A DNA stretch of 36,388 nucleotides, from IMG/VR virus record IMGVR_UViG_2671180892_000013; one strand, written 5' to 3'. Positions 4,854 to 27,333 of this stretch are shown here, piece by piece. The position numbers were made by a program, and so were the translations under genes. Under the pieces are notes generated by a model. The model had not been told where the DNA came from. It saw nothing but the letters and a program-made list of their open reading frames with translations, and did not search any database. The DNA comes from a virus. Its lineage: Duplodnaviria; Heunggongvirae; Uroviricota; Caudoviricetes. Each line of letters opens with the position of its first letter. Position 1 is the stretch's first letter.

Positions 4854-5335
4854 GACAGAAGCCCTCCCACCGTTTTACTGATATCGCTTAAGGCAGATGT
4901 TGCCGTTCCCTGCAGATTATTCAGCTGCGCACTGAGATCACCGAACATATCGGACAGGGATTCATCCACCCGTTTGAGCGACAGGGTGAACTCAATCCGG
5001 CGCGGCATACCGTCGCGGAAAAACTCCGTTTTAGTCTGATTCAGTCCCTCAATCACATACATGCCGTAAATCGTGCCGCTGCCTTCAATCAGGGGCCATG
5101 CTTTCCCCTGTTCTGCCATCTGCTCCAGTGCCAGCAACGACAGCCTGCCGCCTGTTATCTCCGGCATAAGAACACCAGAAAGCGTCAGCATGTCGTTGTC
5201 CGGTCCCAGAAACTGCGTGGACGGACGTCGGTTTACCCGGCTGTTTGCCACATGTCGCCAGCTGCGTTGATACTGCAGTTCCTGATACGGCACGGTGCGC
5301 AGCATAAACACGTACAATCCCAACACCATCATCAT
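4850..5335 (-). CDS. U: tail protein U
   Basis: 161 aa; 4-bp overlaps with T upstream and D downstream. Confidence 0.8.
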   Translation of the reverse strand: MMMVLGLYVFMLRTVPYQELQYQRSWRHVANSRVNRRPSTQFLGPDNDMLTLSGVLMPEITGGRLSLLALEQMAEQGKAWPLIEGSGTIYGMYVIEGLNQTKTEFFRDGMPRRIEFTLSLKRVDESLSDMFGDLSAQLNNLQGTATSALSDISKTVGGLLS

Positions 5336-8300
5336 GCGTCGTATCCCCCCTGATCGCTGTAGTTACTCCTGGCTTTTGCCTTCAGCCTGCGTTCACGCTC
5401 ATCAAGCTGGCGGGCCACCTCCCGCGCAATATCCTGCGCACTTTGTCCTGGCTGCGTCTGGATGATGATCTGCGTCGGTGCCTCAATCCGGTATACGGGC
5501 TGCACAGCAGTTGCGCGACTCACCATTGCTTCACTGCCTTTCGCGGGAAGCGCCAAAGGATGCAACGGTGGAAGCTCTGCTGGCGCGGCAGCAACGCCCA
5601 TCATTCCGGCGACAACCGCAGCCAGTGCAGCGGTATTTCTCCGGCTGGTCACGTTTGCCGGGCCGTTGACAATTTCAGGCCCATTTTCACCGACAATGCC
5701 GAACTGCCCGCGCGGGATATACCCACCGCTGTCATACATCCCCACAAAGCCATATCCCCATGACGGAAAACCACCCGATGGCATCATCACTTTACCGTCT
5801 GCATTCACCGTCGCAGGTTGCTGGTGCGTCACGCTTTCCGGTAGTTTTGCTTTTACGGCCTCTTTACTGACAATGCCGAGTTTTTCCAGCAGCCAGGAAA
5901 CGCCGGATTTCAGGGAGTCCAGCGGATGCATGACCATATTCAGCCCTTCCGCCAGTGCCTCCCCGAATCGTCGCCCCATTGCCGCTGCGCTCTGCAGTTC
6001 GGCAGAGGTCGACTTAACGGGCGTCAGCAGATCAGTAAACCAGCCCCACAGAGCCTGCACTTTGTCACCAATCCACTGAAACACGGGCTTAAGTGGTTCG
6101 AACGCTGCACTGACGGGACCTGCCGCCGCTTTGAATCCTTCCACCACGCCACCAAGAAATGCGGTGATGGGTTGCCAGTATTTCCAGACAACCAGCGCCA
6201 CGCCCGCCAGTGCAGTAACCACAAGACCTATCGGACTGAGCAGAGCGCCTAACAGTCCAGATATGGCATACAGGGCAACGCGCAGCATCGCCAGCGGACC
6301 AGATGCCAGTACTCGCAGCACCGCGCCTGCGGCGGTCAGTCCACCGCGCAGTACCGCCAGAGGATTCATAAACATCACAGCAACAGCACGTAAACCGGAT
6401 AATCCAGACCGCAATAGTGCAATCGGCGCACCTGCTACAGTTTTCAGGACATTTCCCGTCAGTGATGCCGTACGGCGCAAAGACGACAACGGCGCAGTAA
6501 GTAAACCCGCTGCATTACCCGATGAAGCAAGCCCGCGTCGCAGCAGTGCCAGTGGTGCGCCAGCCAGCCAGGACAACGCGTTGCTGGTTCGGGTTACTGC
6601 TGCCGTAACGGAAGGTAACGTTTTGATACCCAGCACAGAGAATCCCAGACGGATGACTGCCAGCGGCCCCAGCACTGCAGCCAGCGCCACCGCTAAGGTG
6701 CCGAGGCCCACGGTAACGGCAGCCACCACAGCGGCCACTTTCATCAGAGTGCCCGTCAGTTCCGGGTTAGCTTCCACCCAACGACGCGACGCTCCCGTGA
6801 CGCTTTTCACCATGTACAGAATATCCATCAGCGGCTGGCGCAGCGTTTCGCCCAGGCTGCTGAAGGTGTTCTGCACTCCGGTTTTGACCAGCAACCACTG
6901 CGCAGAAAGTGAGTCCTTGTTAATGTCGGATTCTTTCTGCATGGAGCCGAGCGCATCATTGCCCGCTGTCAGTTTTAGCTGGCGCTGCAGTTCCGGCAGG
7001 TTGTTTGCCAGTTTCGCCGCGTCATCGCCAAACTCTTTACCAAACAACATGGTCATGGCAGACAGACGTTTATCCTGCGGCAGTGCGTTCACCTTCTCCA
7101 GTACGCGCTGGATAGTTCCCATCGCATCCTTCGTCATCTGCTTTTCAATCACTTCAGGATTGAGTTTCAGCAGATTCATTCCTTCAAAGAAACTCTTGCT
7201 TTGCATGGTGGCAATGGACAATTCACGCACCATCGCGTTTGCTGCACTGGCTGCAACCTCTGGCGCAGCGCCCAGTGTCAGAAAGGTGGAACCCAGCGCC
7301 GCCGCTTTACGATAATCCAGACGATCAGCCACACCACCCAGGCGTTGCATGACATCAATGATATCTGCCCCTTTCGACATGGCGTTATCATCCAGATAGT
7401 TCAGCGCATCACCGAGCTGTTCAATATTGCGGGTAGGGATTTTGTAGAGCTGGGCGATTTTCCCCAGACTTTCTGACAGTTCATCCGCTGGCAGCTCAAA
7501 GGCTGTTGCCGCCTTTGCTGCCGTACTGGCGAAGGCCAGCAGATCACGTTTCTGGTCTTCCCAGCTGTCGTCAGGGTTTGCGACGTTCATGCGCGCACCA
7601 CCTTCAACCAGTGCAGCGAAGTCCACAGCACCGTTTTCCATCGGCAACTGTTCGCTGGCAGCCTTGATGGCATCCTGCATTTCATAAAAACGTGCAGTGC
7701 GGTTGCCATTATCGTCACGCAGACCATTGACCTGCTTTGCCACACCTTTCATGGCATCTTCTATGCTGGTATAGCTTTTTACTGCCGCCATCACTGGCGT
7801 CCCCATTGCCAGCCCTGCAGCCGTGGTAGTGGCTCCGGCTCCTGCAATACGATCGCGCACCTCCAGCGAACGGGCATAACTGGCACGCGCCGCATTCATC
7901 CTGCGCTGAGCTTCCCCCAGTCGCTTCAGCCGCGCCTCCTGTTTCGACAGTTCCTGGTTATAACGTGATGTTTCACGGGCTAAACGGGCAGTTGCTCCCG
8001 CATCATCTTTCGCAGAAATTCCCGCCCGGTACAGTTCTGCACGCACAAGCGCCGTTTGCTTCTGCAAATATTTTTGTTGTTCTTCCAGGCGTTGGACTGC
8101 CAGCGTTTGCCGACCTAAAGCCACAAGGTGCCGTTGTGATGGTTGTTCCATCGCCTCCAGCTCAGAGCTAAGCAAATTAGCCTTCTGTCTGGCATAGTTC
8201 AGCTTGTCGCCTAACTTCTTGTTATCGGCCTGCAGCTTGCGAAATTTTTCCAGGCTGTTACCCGCCTGATTGAGTTTCTTTAATGCGTCACGGGAGTTTC

Positions 8301-21736: not shown

Positions 21737-23503
21737 ATGAACACCACACTGACACCCGCAGATCTCGATCCCCGTCGGCAGGCCATGCTGCTGTACTTTC
21801 AGGGATACCGCGTCGCCCGCATTGCTGAAATGCTGGGCGAGAAAGTTGCAACCGTTCACAGCTGGAAAAAACGCGACAAGTGGGGTGACTATGGGCCGCT
21901 GGATCAGATGCAGCTCACCACCGCCGCACGCTACTGCCAGCTCATTATGAAGGAGCACAAAGAAGGGAAAGATTTCAAAGAAATTGACCTGCTGGCACGC
22001 CAGTCTGAGCGCCACGCGCGGATCGGCAAGTTTAACAATGGCGGCAACGAAGCCGACTTAAACCCAAACGTTGCCAACCGCAACAAAGGCCCACGTCGTC
22101 AGCCGGAAAAGAATGTTTTCACCGATGAACAGATTGAGAAACTGGAAGAAATCTTCCATTCCTCTATGTTCAACTACCAGCGCCACTGGTGGGAAGCCGG
22201 AAAAACCAACCGCATCCGCAACCTGCTGAAGTCACGCCAGATCGGCGCGACCTTTTACTTTGCCCGTGAAGCCCTGATTGACGCCCTGCTGACCGGACGT
22301 AACCAGATTTTCCTTTCTGCCAGCAAGGCTCAGGCCCACGTCTTTAAACAGTACATCATCGACTTTGCCAAAGAAGTGGAGGTGGAGCTGAAAGGCGATC
22401 CGATGGTGCTTCCTAACGGGGCCACGCTTTACTTCCTCGGCACCAATGCCCGCACGGCCCAGAGTTACCACGGCAACCTGTATCTGGATGAATATTTCTG
22501 GATACCGAAATTCCAGGAGCTGCGCAAAGTGGCCTCCGGTATGGCTATTCACAAAAAATGGCGACAAACCTATTTTTCCACGCCATCCAGTCTGACACAC
22601 AGTGCTTATCCGTTCTGGTCCGGTGCGCTGTTCAACCGTGGGCGCAACAAAGCCGATAAGGTGGACATCGACCTGTCCCACAGCAATCTGGCCCCCGGCC
22701 TGCTGTGCGCAGACGGGCAATACCGCCAGATAGTCACCGTGGAAGATGCGGTGCGCGGCGGCTGTAACCTGTTCGACCTCGACCAGCTACGCATGGAGTA
22801 CAGCCCGGACGAATACCAGAACCTGCTGATGTGCGAGTTTGTGGACGATCTCGCGTCCGTGTTTCCGCTCAGCGAGCTGCAGGCGTGCATGGTGGACAGT
22901 TGGGAAGTCTGGACCGACTTTCATGCACTGGCGCTGCGCCCGTTTGGCTGGCGCGAAGTGTGGATCGGTTATGACCCGGCAAAAGGTACGCAAAACGGCG
23001 ACAGCGCTGGATGCGTGGTGATGGCACCGCCAGCCGTGCCGGGTGGTAAGTTCCGCATTCTTGAGCGTCACCAGTGGCGCGGGATGGACTTCCGCGCCCA
23101 AGCTGACGCCATCAAAAAACTTACCGAACAGTACAACGTGACTTATATCGGTATCGACTCAACCGGCGTTGGTCACGGGGTTTACGAGAACGTGAAAGCG
23201 TTCTTTCCTGCCGTCCGGGAGTTTGTCTACAACCCCAACGTTAAAAACGCCCTGGTACTCAAGGCCTACGACATTATCAGCCACCGCCGTCTGGAGTTTG
23301 ACGCCGGGCACACCGACATTGCGCAGTCATTCATGGCAATCCGTCGCGCAACCACCGCCAGTGGCAACCGCCCAACCTATGAAGCCAGCCGCAGCGAAGA
23401 AGCCAGCCACGCCGATCTGGCCTGGGCAACAATGCACGCACTGTTTAACGAACCACTGCAGGGCGAGTCCGCCAATACCAGTAATATTGTGGAGATTTTT
23501 TGA
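21737..23503 (+). CDS. P: terminase ATPase (large) subunit P
   Basis: 588 aa; 4-bp overlap with the portal gene. Confidence 0.9.
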   Translation: MNTTLTPADLDPRRQAMLLYFQGYRVARIAEMLGEKVATVHSWKKRDKWGDYGPLDQMQLTTAARYCQLIMKEHKEGKDFKEIDLLARQSERHARIGKFNNGGNEADLNPNVANRNKGPRRQPEKNVFTDEQIEKLEEIFHSSMFNYQRHWWEAGKTNRIRNLLKSRQIGATFYFAREALIDALLTGRNQIFLSASKAQAHVFKQYIIDFAKEVEVELKGDPMVLPNGATLYFLGTNARTAQSYHGNLYLDEYFWIPKFQELRKVASGMAIHKKWRQTYFSTPSSLTHSAYPFWSGALFNRGRNKADKVDIDLSHSNLAPGLLCADGQYRQIVTVEDAVRGGCNLFDLDQLRMEYSPDEYQNLLMCEFVDDLASVFPLSELQACMVDSWEVWTDFHALALRPFGWREVWIGYDPAKGTQNGDSAGCVVMAPPAVPGGKFRILERHQWRGMDFRAQADAIKKLTEQYNVTYIGIDSTGVGHGVYENVKAFFPAVREFVYNPNVKNALVLKAYDIISHRRLEFDAGHTDIAQSFMAIRRATTASGNRPTYEASRSEEASHADLAWATMHALFNEPLQGESANTSNIVEIF

Positions 23504-24528
23504 TGGGAAAGAGTAAGAAGAACCGCGCTGCGTCGACGAACCAGATCCAGCATAAAAGTCAAACTACAGCCGAAGCATTCAGCTTCGGTGATCCCGTTCC
23601 TGTTCTGGACCGCCGCGAACTACTGGACTATGTGGAATGCGTACAGACAGATCGCTGGTATGAGCCGCCAGTAAGCTTTGACGGACTGGCGCGCACCTTC
23701 CGCGCCGCCGTGCATCACAGTTCACCAATTGCGGTGAAATGCAACATTCTGACCAGTACCTACATCCCCCACCCGCTGCTCAGCCAGCAGGCTTTTTCAC
23801 GTTTTGTGCAGGACTATCTGGTATTTGGTAACGCCTACCTGGAGAAACGCACGAACCGCTTCGGTGAAGTTATCGCCCTTGAGCCTGCTCTGGCAAAATA
23901 CACCCGACGCGGGTTAGACCTGGATACCTACTGGTTTGTGCAATACGGTATGACAACCCAGCCGTATCAGTTCACGAAAGGCAGCATTTTTCATCTGATG
24001 GAACCGGACATTAACCAGGAGATCTACGGCCTGCCCGGCTATCTTTCTGCCATTCCGTCCGCCCTGCTCAATGAGTCCGCCACGCTGTTCCGACGCAAAT
24101 ATTACATCAACGGCAGCCATGCAGGCTTCATCATGTATATGACCGATGCCGCGCAGAATCAGGAGGATGTGAACAATCTCCGCAACGCGATGAAAAGTGC
24201 CAAAGGTCCTGGTAACTTCCGCAACCTGTTTATGTACTCGCCTAATGGCAAAAAAGACGGGCTTCAGATCATCCCGTTGTCAGAAGTCGCAGCGAAGGAT
24301 GAATTTCTGAACATCAAGAACGTGAGCCGGGACGATATGATGGCGGCGCATCGTGTACCGCCACAGATGATGGGGATTATGCCGAATAATGTTGGGGGAT
24401 TTGGGGATGTGGAGAAATCGGCTAAAGTATTTGTGCGAAATGAGTTATTGCCGTTGCAAAAACGATTAATAGAAATTAACTCGTGGGTAAATATGGAAAT
24501 TATAAAATATACCGCATACAAATTATAA
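23500..24528 (+). CDS. Q: portal protein Q
   Basis: 342 aa downstream of P; the last about 15 codons lie in AT-rich cargo-type DNA. Confidence 0.88.
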   Translation: MMGKSKKNRAASTNQIQHKSQTTAEAFSFGDPVPVLDRRELLDYVECVQTDRWYEPPVSFDGLARTFRAAVHHSSPIAVKCNILTSTYIPHPLLSQQAFSRFVQDYLVFGNAYLEKRTNRFGEVIALEPALAKYTRRGLDLDTYWFVQYGMTTQPYQFTKGSIFHLMEPDINQEIYGLPGYLSAIPSALLNESATLFRRKYYINGSHAGFIMYMTDAAQNQEDVNNLRNAMKSAKGPGNFRNLFMYSPNGKKDGLQIIPLSEVAAKDEFLNIKNVSRDDMMAAHRVPPQMMGIMPNNVGGFGDVEKSAKVFVRNELLPLQKRLIEINSWVNMEIIKYTAYKL

Positions 24529-24533
24529 CCTTC

Positions 24534-24561
24534 AAAAGGATTGGCATAACACCAATCCTTT
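24534..24561. terminator. bidirectional hairpin between convergent Q and the SIR2-like gene
   Basis: aaaggattgg cataaca ccaatccttt 10-bp stem; T-run on the minus-strand side. Confidence 0.45.
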
Positions 24562-24576
24562 CATCATATAGATACG

Positions 24577-25449
24577 CTACCAATTCATGCTTTCTTTTAA
24601 TTCAGTTCGCGCATTTTCAACAAGTTGTACCAACTCTTTAAGACTATCAGTTAACACTTGATGACTACCTTTATTTGTTCTATATGTTAACATATTTACA
24701 TTTAATGTTTTTTCAATAACAGGAACCATATCTCTATGAATACTTTTATCAGCCATAACCATATAATGTGGTTTAACAGCATTGTGCTTGAAAAAAGCAT
24801 CTTCCAGAAGAAGCCTTATATCGGGGTCATTAGCCCCACAACCTATAAATAGAAATGTATGCGTTAAACCCAAGGCATTAAGAATCTCGTAAAAATCTCT
24901 GTACTGTGATCTTGCCTTTGCATAATCACTTCTTGAAAAAATCAAGTTTGACGTATTATCAATTGTGCCGTGAATTTTCAGAATAACACGACCACTATCC
25001 TTTATTGCACTTGCAATATCACTATCAAAATAATTTTTGACACTTACCGTGCCTTCTGTTTCTTTACTAACATATGTTTCATATATTTTATCAAAATTAG
25101 GCGTTACAACAATCCTGCAATCTAATTTAAAAAGAAACTCATGTATATCTGCTTTAGCATAATGTGGATTCAAGAATGCATTTTTTGCAATTTCATCGAA
25201 CCTCCCTTTAGGAAGCTTTGCCTTAATTAATTCACAAGCAGTCAAATAATCTTCGTTTTTAATCAATCGTTTAATTTGTAGCGATGACCCAGAACTGAGT
25301 TCTGGTAAACATCCTTCAAGAAATTGTTTCCAACTTGGAGGCCGTGAATTACCTTTACCAACACTGTTCATTGAGACGCCTGCCCCCAGAAATAAAATAC
25401 ATTTCCGTCTCGCTAAATCGGAGACTAAGCTTTTATCCCAATTAATCAT
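24577..25449 (-). CDS. SIR2-like domain protein (predicted NAD-dependent effector), second gene of a two-gene cargo operon
   Basis: 290 aa; CILFLGAGVS glycine-rich motif near the N-terminus, TPNFD, IHGTID (HG), FLFIGCGANDPD; AT-rich; ATG overlaps the upstream ATPase stop (ATGA). Confidence 0.7.
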   Translation of the reverse strand: MINWDKSLVSDLARRKCILFLGAGVSMNSVGKGNSRPPSWKQFLEGCLPELSSGSSLQIKRLIKNEDYLTACELIKAKLPKGRFDEIAKNAFLNPHYAKADIHEFLFKLDCRIVVTPNFDKIYETYVSKETEGTVSVKNYFDSDIASAIKDSGRVILKIHGTIDNTSNLIFSRSDYAKARSQYRDFYEILNALGLTHTFLFIGCGANDPDIRLLLEDAFFKHNAVKPHYMVMADKSIHRDMVPVIEKTLNVNMLTYRTNKGSHQVLTDSLKELVQLVENARTELKESMNW

Positions 25450-26453
25450 GACTCACTCGCAGCAACATTATCAAGGATACGGGAACAAATACTTTCAAAA
25501 AGCTTCTTAGCATCGTTTACTTTTGAAAAGTGCGATCCTACTACCCCATCTTTATTTTTAAGATTAAAAATTGGAGCATTTGCTAATTGAGACAATGGAA
25601 TTAAGCTATTCATATTCTCAATTTGCCCTAAATCAAAATTCATATCTTGTTTTTTTGCGTAATTATTGATTATTTCTGCTTTCATTGCCTTAGGAATTTT
25701 AAGTGCAATTTTTTCATACGCATTAACTTTTACTTTCTCTCCCCTTACTGTTTTCCCTTTATATTGTTGCATCGCATACCCAAGAAACTTCAGTCTGCAC
25801 TGTAAAGATGAGCCATCGATGATAAAATCTTCACCTTCATTTTTAGTATAGTTTTTCAGGCCATCAGATACACCTTCCATCCAGGCCTTTAGCGAAAGGT
25901 TAATATTATTAAGAGCTAAAAGACTAAACATATCAACAGACATTGGAATAATGAAATAGTCACATGATATTATTATTGCTCTATTCAATGCACCTAATGA
26001 AGGGCCTACATCATATAAAATAAAATCATAGTCTTTATACATGGAGGACAGATGTGAAAAAACAAATGTTGTTTGTATACCTCGAGGTTTCCCTGCCACA
26101 GCGGGGTCCCAATCAGATGCTAAAAAATCCTCACTCAACGCTAACTTGGGATCCCCAGGAATCAAGTCAAAACCAAACCTATCAGTTTTTATTGGAACTA
26201 CACGAGTAGTTGCATATCCTTTTGCCCTCCGAACTGGGGTTAAGAAATTTTCAATTGTATTTCTCTTATCAGAACCATAAAGTTCATCAAGTTTTTTCTC
26301 TCCCAAACAATAAGATGTTGTGTTGCACTGAGGATCGGCGTCAATAACCAACACTTTTTTGTGCATCTCAAGACTAAGATAAGCACCAACATTACACAAC
26401 AATGTAGTTTTGCCAACGCCACCTTTATTATTGAAAAAAACTATACTGTTCAT
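25446..26453 (-). CDS. ParA/MinD-superfamily deviant Walker-A ATPase, first gene of the cargo operon
   Basis: 335 aa; NNKGGVGKTT at residues 8-17, VIDADPQ, ILYDVGPS; no ParB-like gene follows. Confidence 0.75.
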   Translation of the reverse strand: MNSIVFFNNKGGVGKTTLLCNVGAYLSLEMHKKVLVIDADPQCNTTSYCLGEKKLDELYGSDKRNTIENFLTPVRRAKGYATTRVVPIKTDRFGFDLIPGDPKLALSEDFLASDWDPAVAGKPRGIQTTFVFSHLSSMYKDYDFILYDVGPSLGALNRAIIISCDYFIIPMSVDMFSLLALNNINLSLKAWMEGVSDGLKNYTKNEGEDFIIDGSSLQCRLKFLGYAMQQYKGKTVRGEKVKVNAYEKIALKIPKAMKAEIINNYAKKQDMNFDLGQIENMNSLIPLSQLANAPIFNLKNKDGVVGSHFSKVNDAKKLFESICSRILDNVAASES

Positions 26454-26490
26454 CTATAACATTGCTCATTTTATCACTCAAATTTCCTGA

Positions 26491-26499
26491 GATTTATAC
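26491..26499 (-). promoter_or_regulatory. candidate extended -10 (TGTATAAAT) for the ATPase/SIR2 operon
   Basis: Minus-strand tgtataaat about 40 bp upstream of the ATPase ATG. Confidence 0.3.
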
Positions 26500-26599
26500 A
26501 TAAGATTAATCGCAATGTCCAATCAGCTTTAACATTAATTAACACCTCTTTTAAGATTAAAATTTTGTTAAGAAATGCACTCTAGCCCCATGGCGCGCG

Positions 26600-26618
26600 C
26601 TCGTATCCCCGCCACGCC
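26600..26618 (-). other. cos-like cohesive-end motif
   Basis: Minus strand reads GGCGTGGCGGGGATACGAG; first 13 nt match the P2/186 cohesive-end sequence as I recall it. Confidence 0.4.
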
Positions 26619-26997
26619 TGCCCGCTTTATGCAGTGGTTTTCATGCACATGCATGACATGAGCAAAAGCCCGCCAGTTCTGGCGAATCTGAGCAAAGACG
26701 ATCCTCAATCGATCATGCGATTTCATGCAGCATAGTCATGCACTGTCAAGGAAGTGAAAATCCGTATCTGAATGGCCACTTGAAAAACGGATCATACGGG
26801 TTTACAAAGATGAATGTTCGCTGTGAACGGGAAGCGGAAGTTAACTTTCAGATAACATAATCCATATGCACGAGAACCTCTAAAATAGAATGGGACACCT
26901 AAGCGGGGTACTTACAACTATTCTTTCCATATTCACAGTTAACACTCTGTTTGGCGTATTTTTATTCAAATAGCAAACACCAATAAAAGGAGTTTCC

Positions 26998-27333
26998 ATG
27001 AACAATATTCCCCCTATACCACAGTTAGGAATTTATGTCTCAAAAATCGATCCCACCCTACGTATCACTGTAACCGATGTTGATATTGTTGATGGTGAGG
27101 ATGATTCTCCTGATGATGAATTGTTTTATTTAGTCCACTGGATCGAGGGGGAAGATGAAAGTGATATGACAGCAATGGGATTTGAGCTAGACCCAGTAGA
27201 GTGGCAGGCTTTCGTTGAATCTGAGCAATTAGTGTTTGAGCGTGATCCGTACATGGATTCAATCCCCGAAAATTCAAACTTGGCAAAGATTCGGGATTTT
27301 CTCATGAAGACTAAACAGAATGATCATTCGTAA
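26998..27333 (+). CDS. hypothetical small acidic protein
   Basis: 111 aa rich in Asp/Glu (DIVDGEDDSPDDELF, EGEDESDM); strong aaaggag SD 7 nt before the ATG. Confidence 0.6.
   Translation: MNNIPPIPQLGIYVSKIDPTLRITVTDVDIVDGEDDSPDDELFYLVHWIEGEDESDMTAMGFELDPVEWQAFVESEQLVFERDPYMDSIPENSNLAKIRDFLMKTKQNDHS

Follow-up and report, generated by a model that had tools for sequence, protein, structure and literature searches.

We analysed a 36,388-nucleotide (nt) stretch of virus DNA (Caudoviricetes, IMG/VR record IMGVR_UViG_2671180892_000013), called the window below, which matches a chromosomal P2/186-like prophage of Escherichia coli 2014C-3307 (NZ_CP027368.1) with 100% identity. Between the portal gene Q and the cos site, the window carries two genes encoding a ParA/Soj-type ATPase of 335 amino acids (aa) and a stand-alone SIR2 protein of 290 aa. 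The pair appears to be a defence module in which a SIR2 effector is joined to a ParA-class partner, and in the comparative analysis the ATPase family appears broad and modular. Immunity would be a new role for ATPases of this class. The pair itself is already catalogued and is not a new discovery. A previous annotation, made from the letters of the window and hereafter called the initial annotation, had described two minus-strand genes with an ATGA overlap in AT-rich DNA and had assigned their products to ParA-type ATPases and SIR2-like proteins. The open reading frames (ORFs) and GC content confirm this description, all of the motifs quoted for the two proteins are found in the translations, and Pfam places the proteins in AAA_31 (E-value 2e-29, with CbiA at 7e-14, both ParA-class models) and SIR2_2 (PF13289, 1.6e-23), respectively.

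The ATPase and SIR2 genes form a coupled unit

A survey of co-occurrence, proposed in the initial annotation, was carried out with one genome per species and yielded 80 loci encoding an ATPase with 32–49% identity over its full length. A full-length SIR2 homologue (26–50% identity) is encoded directly downstream of the ATPase in 53 of the 80 loci, which include nearly all of those where the ATPase identity is at least 33%. When the longest ORFs are scored, the two genes share a 4-nt overlap in 26 of the 53 paired loci and overlap or lie no more than 4 nt apart in 50. The divergence of the ATPase from its E. coli counterpart is correlated with that of the SIR2 (r=0.68, n=53). Similarly, all 12 IMG/VR viral contigs encoding the SIR2, at least three of which are P2-like, have the ATPase gene directly upstream. 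As judged from these comparisons, the ATPase and SIR2 genes are inherited as a coupled unit.

Hosts of the pair include Proteobacteria, Bacteroidota, Firmicutes, Actinobacteria, Planctomycetota, Acidobacteria and Myxococcota. The pair forms a two-gene islet amid housekeeping genes in Serratia and Aeromonas and lies next to an integrase in Vibrio atlanticus; it is also found on plasmids of Spirosoma, Vibrio and Salmonella. The SIR2 family comprises 221 clusters at 50% identity (exhaustive profile search, E<=1e-30).

Both proteins retain their active sites

The SIR2 protein contains the motifs LGAGVS, TPNFD, IHGT and GCGANDPD. Among the residues invariant in 32 homologues are G22, G24, N118, D120, H160 and DPD at positions 208–210, so that the GxG loop (G22, G24) and the catalytic N118 and H160 are retained. 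The protein has no Zn-ribbon, as the only cysteines that are invariant (C72) or nearly so (C204) in the same 32 homologues make no four-Cys site. There is no second domain either, the 290 residues being the SIR2 domain alone. In profile searches against the PDB, the protein matches ThsA, DSR2, FAM118B and KomC with E-values of 1e-15 to 1e-9, and Avs5 is also found; among the PADLOC models it matches ThsA (1e-21) and the SIR2-type LmuA (3e-20). The AlphaFold2 (AF2) model has a mean confidence score (pLDDT) of 91, and its top Foldseek matches are the SIR2 domain of DSR2 (TM-score ~0.75), SeThsA and KomC. The model thus has a fold of the immune type with an intact active site, and NADase activity is predicted from the sequence.

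The start of the SIR2 gene differs between annotations. RefSeq/PGAP uses an internal ATG (coding sequence 24577-25371, 264 aa, WP_052431344). Because the homologues (287–290 aa) align from residue 1 and cover 100% of the query, and because the short form would drop the invariant GxG loop, the 290-aa start and the ATGA overlap stand. The 290-aa form overlapping the ATPase stop is also the one used in the table of Rousset et al. 2022 (PMC9122126). The ends of the protein are conserved as well, with an invariant Trp at position 4 and an invariant C-terminal Trp at position 290 (consensus ...NW), suggesting that the termini may contact the ATPase or join SIR2 subunits to one another.

The ATPase contains the motifs NNKGGVGKTT, VLVIDADPQ and FILYDVGPS. 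Lysines K10 and K15 of the deviant Walker A, aspartates D38 and D40 of Walker A' and D148 of Walker B are invariant in 37 homologues. By sequence comparison, both active sites, that of the ATPase and that of the SIR2, are intact. Beyond the length of a normal Soj protein, the ATPase has a family-specific C-terminal extension of ~100 aa with the invariant motifs QQYxxKTVxG, SLxPxSQ and DGVVGxHF. Its AF2 model (pLDDT 88) is structurally closest to PDB 3PG5, followed by the DNA-binding Soj, ParA and McdA. 3PG5 (DIP2308 of Corynebacterium diphtheriae, 361 aa) is a full-length relative of the ATPase (5e-67 over residues 1–329) from the same ParA-like family, although identity is only 24–29%. The crystal structure was produced by structural genomics in 2010, and no function is assigned to the protein.

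Partners vary among related ATPases

The SIR2 is not the only partner of these ATPases. System #110 of the P2 hotspot is a two-gene ParA|RelA_SpoT pair (PMC9122126). Its ATPase is a full-length homologue of the window ATPase (29% identity over 333 aa), and the two pairs share the hotspot and the two-gene layout, with a RelA/SpoT-type nucleotide pyrophosphokinase replacing the SIR2. In a sister ATPase clade (32–36% identity, loci L061–L081), an overlapping gene of ~400 aa precedes the ATPase (examples in Table 1). Its product combines AlbA_2 (Schlafen-like) and HATPase_c_4 domains and matches the PADLOC models of pAgo-associated PNTD proteins. In locus L081, a type I HsdR gene then follows.

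A further variant retains the SIR2. In four loci, from Myxococcus, Pseudomonas yamanorum (locus L043), and metagenome-assembled genomes (MAGs) of Polyangiaceae and of a deltaproteobacterium, a gene for a type II N6/N4 DNA methyltransferase directly follows the SIR2 gene, forming a three-gene operon (Table 1). One database protein (P0245, 665 aa) is a SIR2-methyltransferase fusion. Partners therefore differ among related ATPases, and a DNA methyltransferase is associated with one subclade. The sequences of the methyltransferase-linked variants suggest that DNA may be what the ATPase reads, and they give hints of a methylation-based logic for telling self from non-self.

The pair is cargo of the Q-A hotspot

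Experiments have validated the Q-A interval of P2-like phages as a hotspot of anti-phage genes, with a cargo that includes old, tin, retrons, DprA-PRTase, TIR systems and others (PMC9122126). The cassette lies in this interval, between Q and a cos-like site, as the initial annotation had proposed, and it is a self-contained cargo of ~2.1 kb. The Q-A interval of a Klebsiella variicola P2-like prophage contains a 56%-identical pair that is inverted relative to the E. coli one and shares the strand of Q; this orientation indicates that the copy was probably acquired separately. The pair is thus found in the validated hotspot in two independent arrangements. In the Klebsiella hotspot, an HNH-domain gene adjoins the pair (locus L084, 10299-11132), making two cargo items.

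The boundaries of the E. coli cassette are well marked (Table 1). GC content is 0.30–0.39 over 24500-26600, versus 0.52–0.60 in the flanks. At the left side, similarity of Q to the P2-like portal genes of 1,231 other E. coli genomes ends 36–116 nt before the Q stop codon, consistent with the initial annotation, where the junction had been placed inside the 3' end of Q; on these alignments, the final Q codons are part of the variable segment. At the right side, the matches to over 1,200 E. coli genomes begin only at query position 2179–2194. The cos-like core GGCGTGGCGGGGA follows at 26601-26618 on the minus strand and fits the cos pattern with three mismatches.

Table 1. Coordinates of the cassette and its surroundings in the window, and of partner genes in other loci of the family (L numbers)
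Feature	Sequence	Position	Strand	Remarks
Terminase gene P	window	21737-23503	+	upstream of Q
Portal gene Q	window	23500-24528	+	stop at 24528; convergent with SIR2 gene
Left recombination junction zone	window	24412..24492		inside Q 3' end; BLAST match end points; GC drop starts here
Perfect 10-bp hairpin	window	24535..24561		AAAGGATTGG / CCAATCCTTT, 7-nt loop; between convergent Q and SIR2 genes
Stand-alone SIR2_2 gene, 290 aa	window	24577..25449	-	ORF; Pfam SIR2_2
ATGA stop/start overlap of ATPase and SIR2 genes	window	25446-25449	-	
ParA/Soj-type ATPase gene, 335 aa	window	25446..26453	-	ORF; Pfam AAA_31
AT-rich leader, 124 nt	window	26454..26577	-	cassette-specific; upstream of ATPase gene
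Right junction and conserved cos region	window	26578..26700		similarity resumes at ~26578
AlbA_2/HATPase partner gene, ~400 aa	L063	4796-5989		
AlbA_2/HATPase partner gene, ~400 aa	L067	4799-6004		
AlbA_2/HATPase partner gene, ~400 aa	L081	4826-6004		
DNA methyltransferase gene	L033	7936-9075		
DNA methyltransferase gene	L035	7914-9032		
DNA methyltransferase gene	L043	7922-9082		
DNA methyltransferase gene	L049	3093-4226		

No further ORF is present inside the cassette besides the two genes, of which that of the ATPase comes first and that of the SIR2 second. Their ATGA overlap is a sequence feature implying that translation of the two is probably coupled. The native promoter is expected in the leader that precedes the ATPase gene, where a putative weak one can be discerned by eye (TTGGAC-18-TATAAA at 26522..26493). 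The hairpin between Q and the SIR2 gene is a candidate bidirectional terminator. Neither element was called by the consensus scans (minus strand of the leader for promoters), in which site counts for promoters and terminators were no higher than in shuffled sequence. In another IMG/VR copy of the same prophage (UViG_2609460219_000011, locus L089), the ATPase gene is split over three frames (4997-6001) with SIR2, Q and P intact, owing either to an error in the assembly or to decay of this copy.

Previous listing and relation to known systems

The initial annotation had matched the pair to no named defence system and had thereby implied that it was new. The first point holds for the resources searched: PADLOC-DB v2 (2023) and NCBIfam r20 (June 2026) contain no model specific for the pair or the ATPase. 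In PADLOC, the ATPase matches only PDC-M28B, at 8e-5 and over the Walker A, and in NCBIfam nothing scores above cut-off for the pair. The implied novelty did not survive, since Table S5B of Rousset et al. 2022 already lists the pair as system #168 (10 occurrences), with no comment and no name (PMC9122126). The SIR2 sequence printed for #168 is identical to the 290-aa protein of the window, with the locus between gpQ and gpA. Table S5A of the same paper lists WP_044069624 and WP_044069625 (PMC9122126), and WP_044069624 is the RefSeq ATPase annotated in this prophage. The sequence given as 'protein 1' in row 168 of Table S5B is that of the row 110 ATPase and not WP_044069624 (PMC9122126, supplementary file 6), probably through a slip in the table or because a cluster representative was printed. 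Phylogenetic spread, partner swapping and methyltransferase variants, as analysed here, are not described in that paper. No paper naming or testing the pair was found in full-text searches of the literature, the supplementary tables of Rousset et al. being its sole record there; subscription-only papers were outside the scope of this search, and a published name is possible.

The effectors of Thoeris, DSR2 and Kongming (KomC) share with the window SIR2 the fold and the catalytic Asn and His, whereas the surrounding architectures are different. In Thoeris, ThsA joins a SIR2 (or TM) domain to a ligand-binding SLOG domain and has an adjacent ThsB/TIR gene; the cassette has neither SLOG nor ThsB, and the PADLOC ThsA match covers profile positions 12–228 of 478. 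DSR1 and DSR2 are single proteins of ~1,000–1,200 aa that begin with a SIR2 domain and end in a sensor region, which in DSR2 has 700 aa; the window SIR2, with its 290 aa, lacks such a region and scores 25.6 bits against the NCBIfam Dsr2 model, compared with a cut-off of 1400. The KomA and KomB partners of Kongming are missing from the pair. Likewise, in Lamassu the SMC-like ATPase LmuB, with or without LmuC, is encoded beside LmuA, while the cassette has no SMC gene and its match to the LmuA model is limited to the SIR2 domain.

The closest parallel is SIR2-HerA (Nezha), also a two-gene operon of an ATPase and a stand-alone SIR2 effector of the NADase type. According to two reports, assembly of its ATPase controls the NADase activity (PMC11514289, PMC11472057). 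The difference is in the partner, a hexameric HerA/FtsK translocase in SIR2-HerA and a SIMIBI-class dimer ATPase of the ParA/Soj type in the window. No DUF87/HerA match was found in the window pair, the ATPase matching only AAA_31, CbiA and ParA-class models. The window SIR2 is also closer to ThsA and DSR2 than to PDB chain 9v0g (7e-9), which we presume to be a HerA-associated SIR2. SIR2-HerA may thus serve as the best working analogy for the pair, with an ATPase of a different class.

Proposed mechanism and alternatives

With moderate confidence, we propose that the pair is a two-component NAD-depleting abortive-infection system in which the ParA-type ATPase is the switch. The proposal is made because the NADase-type SIR2 and the ATPase are both intact, the two are strictly coupled, the pair is mobile and effectors are swapped; this set of five features is what usually marks an immune module of sensor plus effector. 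As such a module, the two-gene cassette would be self-contained and horizontally mobile, and it would travel as cargo in the cos-proximal hotspot of a P2-like prophage. Its SIR2 would act as the effector by consuming NAD+, as enzymes of the ThsA/DSR2/KomC type do. The ATPase would be the regulatory or sensing partner, an ATP-dependent dimer switch that is probably DNA-bound like its closest structural relatives. It may hold the SIR2 inactive until an infection cue alters its nucleotide- or DNA-bound state, and may then permit or promote assembly of the SIR2 into an active oligomer. Once activated, the SIR2 would deplete NAD+, growth of the infected cell would stop and the cycle of the superinfecting phage would remain incomplete. 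In this way the pair would protect against phages; a sensor role of the ATPase is proposed by analogy, and DNA is the substrate that it presumably senses. The candidate defence reading of the initial annotation is reasonable and appears better supported now that comparative evidence is available.

A broader proposal is more tentative. The ATPase family could be an unrecognised class of immune sensors or switches whose effectors can be exchanged for one another (a SIR2 NADase, an enzyme of the RelA/SpoT type or an AlbA_2/HATPase protein resembling Schlafen), spread over bacterial phyla, phages and plasmids and reading the state of DNA. In the methyltransferase subclade, the ATPase might tell an unmethylated invader from self, following a logic like that of restriction-modification in which the 'restriction' arm would be NAD+ depletion and not DNA cleavage.

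Several observations weigh against the abortive-infection proposal. Because we know of no ParA/MinD-class ATPase that serves as an immune sensor, the role given to the ATPase rests on analogy with SIR2-HerA, and no recognisable trigger or sensor domain is found in the pair. SIR2-fold enzymes may also be ADP-ribosyltransferases or deacylases. Outside prophages, the defence-island signal is only moderate, many loci being located amid housekeeping genes. None of the 50,697 deposited phage genomes encodes a SIR2 homologue at E<=1e-10, and only 12 of 5,426 complete E. coli genomes contain the cassette. Finally, the pair is not among the systems cloned by Rousset et al.: the table of cloned systems has no 'ParA' or 'AAA_31', and its sole SIR2 entry is a single-gene P4 construct (PMC9122126).

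Compact, translationally coupled pairs on prophages, plasmids and integrase-flanked islands, with the regulator gene first and the potential toxin second, also bring to mind toxin-antitoxin modules, and the related ParA|RelA_SpoT pair resembles toxSAS systems. In such an addiction module, the SIR2 would be a growth-arresting toxin neutralised by the ATPase, and the module would mainly serve to stabilise the carrier prophage or island and not to keep other phages out. We consider this unlikely, since antitoxins are usually small labile proteins or RNAs and not ATPases of 335 aa whose catalytic motifs are fully conserved, and many copies are chromosomal two-gene islets with nothing to stabilise. 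It is also not an exclusive rival, as many modules of this kind also defend.

Equally, there is only a small chance that the SIR2 is a regulatory deacylase or ADP-ribosyltransferase that acts on host or phage proteins or on DNA, for instance, in lysogeny control or metabolism, with the ATPase positioning it or passing it on to its target and no bulk depletion of NAD+. Such activities exist in other SIR2-fold families, the ATPase has fold matches to the ParA-class positioning machines, and the methyltransferase-linked variants would fit a DNA-directed modification. However, in both sequence and fold the SIR2 is nearest to the NADase clade (ThsA, DSR2, KomC and FAM118B) and not to the CobB/Sir2Tm deacylases; it lacks the Zn-ribbon, and a place in a defence hotspot together with the exchange of partners is what immune modules typically show.

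It is highly improbable that the ATPase is a true partition or maintenance protein of the prophage as an episome, with the SIR2 as an unrelated passenger. Around one quarter of P2-like hotspots contain a putative partition system, but these are of the StbA/ParM type and not ParA (PMC9122126). The PHROGs family of the ATPase is named 'ParA-like partition protein', some copies are found on plasmids, and the ATPase resembles the proteins of ParABS, McdAB and MinD systems in its fold, its deviant Walker A and its ATP-sandwich dimer architecture. However, it has its own ~100-aa extension, and the pair lacks ParB, McdB, MinE or a centromere. No ParB-like gene lies beside the pair in any locus examined, the second gene being a SIR2 here and in the 53 paired loci, and only short two-copy matches, with no repeat array or centromere, are found in 24400-27000. 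The NCBIfam partition models remain far below their cut-offs (NF041546 ParA_partition, 52.9 bits versus 180; PrgP, 49 versus 400). Given these results and the strict synteny of ATPase and SIR2, which extends to the viral contigs and chromosomal islets, we reject a partition function; the initial annotation, which had noted the lack of a ParB partner and of centromere repeats and had thought partition unlikely, was correct in this respect.

Hardly more credible is a role in counter-defence, where the prophage SIR2 would destroy NAD-derived immune signals or pre-empt NAD-based immunity of the host to the benefit of the P2-like phage: the pair is phage-borne in E. coli and Klebsiella and phages do carry enzymes aimed at immune nucleotides, but most family members are in chromosomes or plasmids without nearby phage genes, and deposited phage genomes lack the pair altogether. 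The genes also occupy a cargo slot that is expressed in lysogeny and used by old, tin and other exclusion genes (PMC9122126).

If the pair is protective, it would represent a defence system with a ParA/MinD-class ATPase as the regulatory arm and a further way of controlling SIR2 NADases. ATPases of this class are known for positioning DNA and organelles and, to our knowledge, not for immunity. Three uncharacterised pairs, in which the ATPase is combined with SIR2, RelA/SpoT or AlbA_2/HATPase, would then fall into one family that can be tested by a single approach, and the methyltransferase-linked variants would provide a direct handle on the cue sensed by the ATPase. The self-contained cassette of ~2.1 kb should be easy to clone, and the family already has a crystal structure (3PG5). 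Given its frequency in complete genomes, the effect on E. coli genomics would be small.

Genes flanking the family loci and the cassette

The 139 flanking ORFs of the family loci include type II restriction-modification, Mrr, nSTAND and integrase genes along with many housekeeping genes, and separate single-protein scans of the neighbours identified HsdR, Lamassu and MzaE. The MzaE gene (1.4e-60; locus L026, 9154-11505) adjoins a family member in Prevotellaceae. Cap4/DUF4297, considered as an alternative partner in a Bacillota MAG with a distant ParA-like gene (locus L059, 7040-9803), was rejected, since the gene encodes a complete LmuA (2.7e-119) and the next ORF, of 574 aa, is probably LmuB, so that both appear to form an adjacent Lamassu system. 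A link to MADS, raised by PADLOC mad3 and mad8 matches among the neighbours, was rejected as well. The match that was traced (locus L003, 620-3463) is a 947-aa ABC protein of the size of UvrA, and UvrA and UvrB domains recur among the flanks in the Pfam scan of the neighbour set; the matching neighbours are probably housekeeping genes by the insertion site. In the window itself, a 111-aa acidic ORF of PHROG 17127 (2e-70) is located just past cos (26998-27333, plus strand), outside the cassette; together with a DinI-like gene and a small ORF before gene A, it is part of the conserved P2-like backbone.

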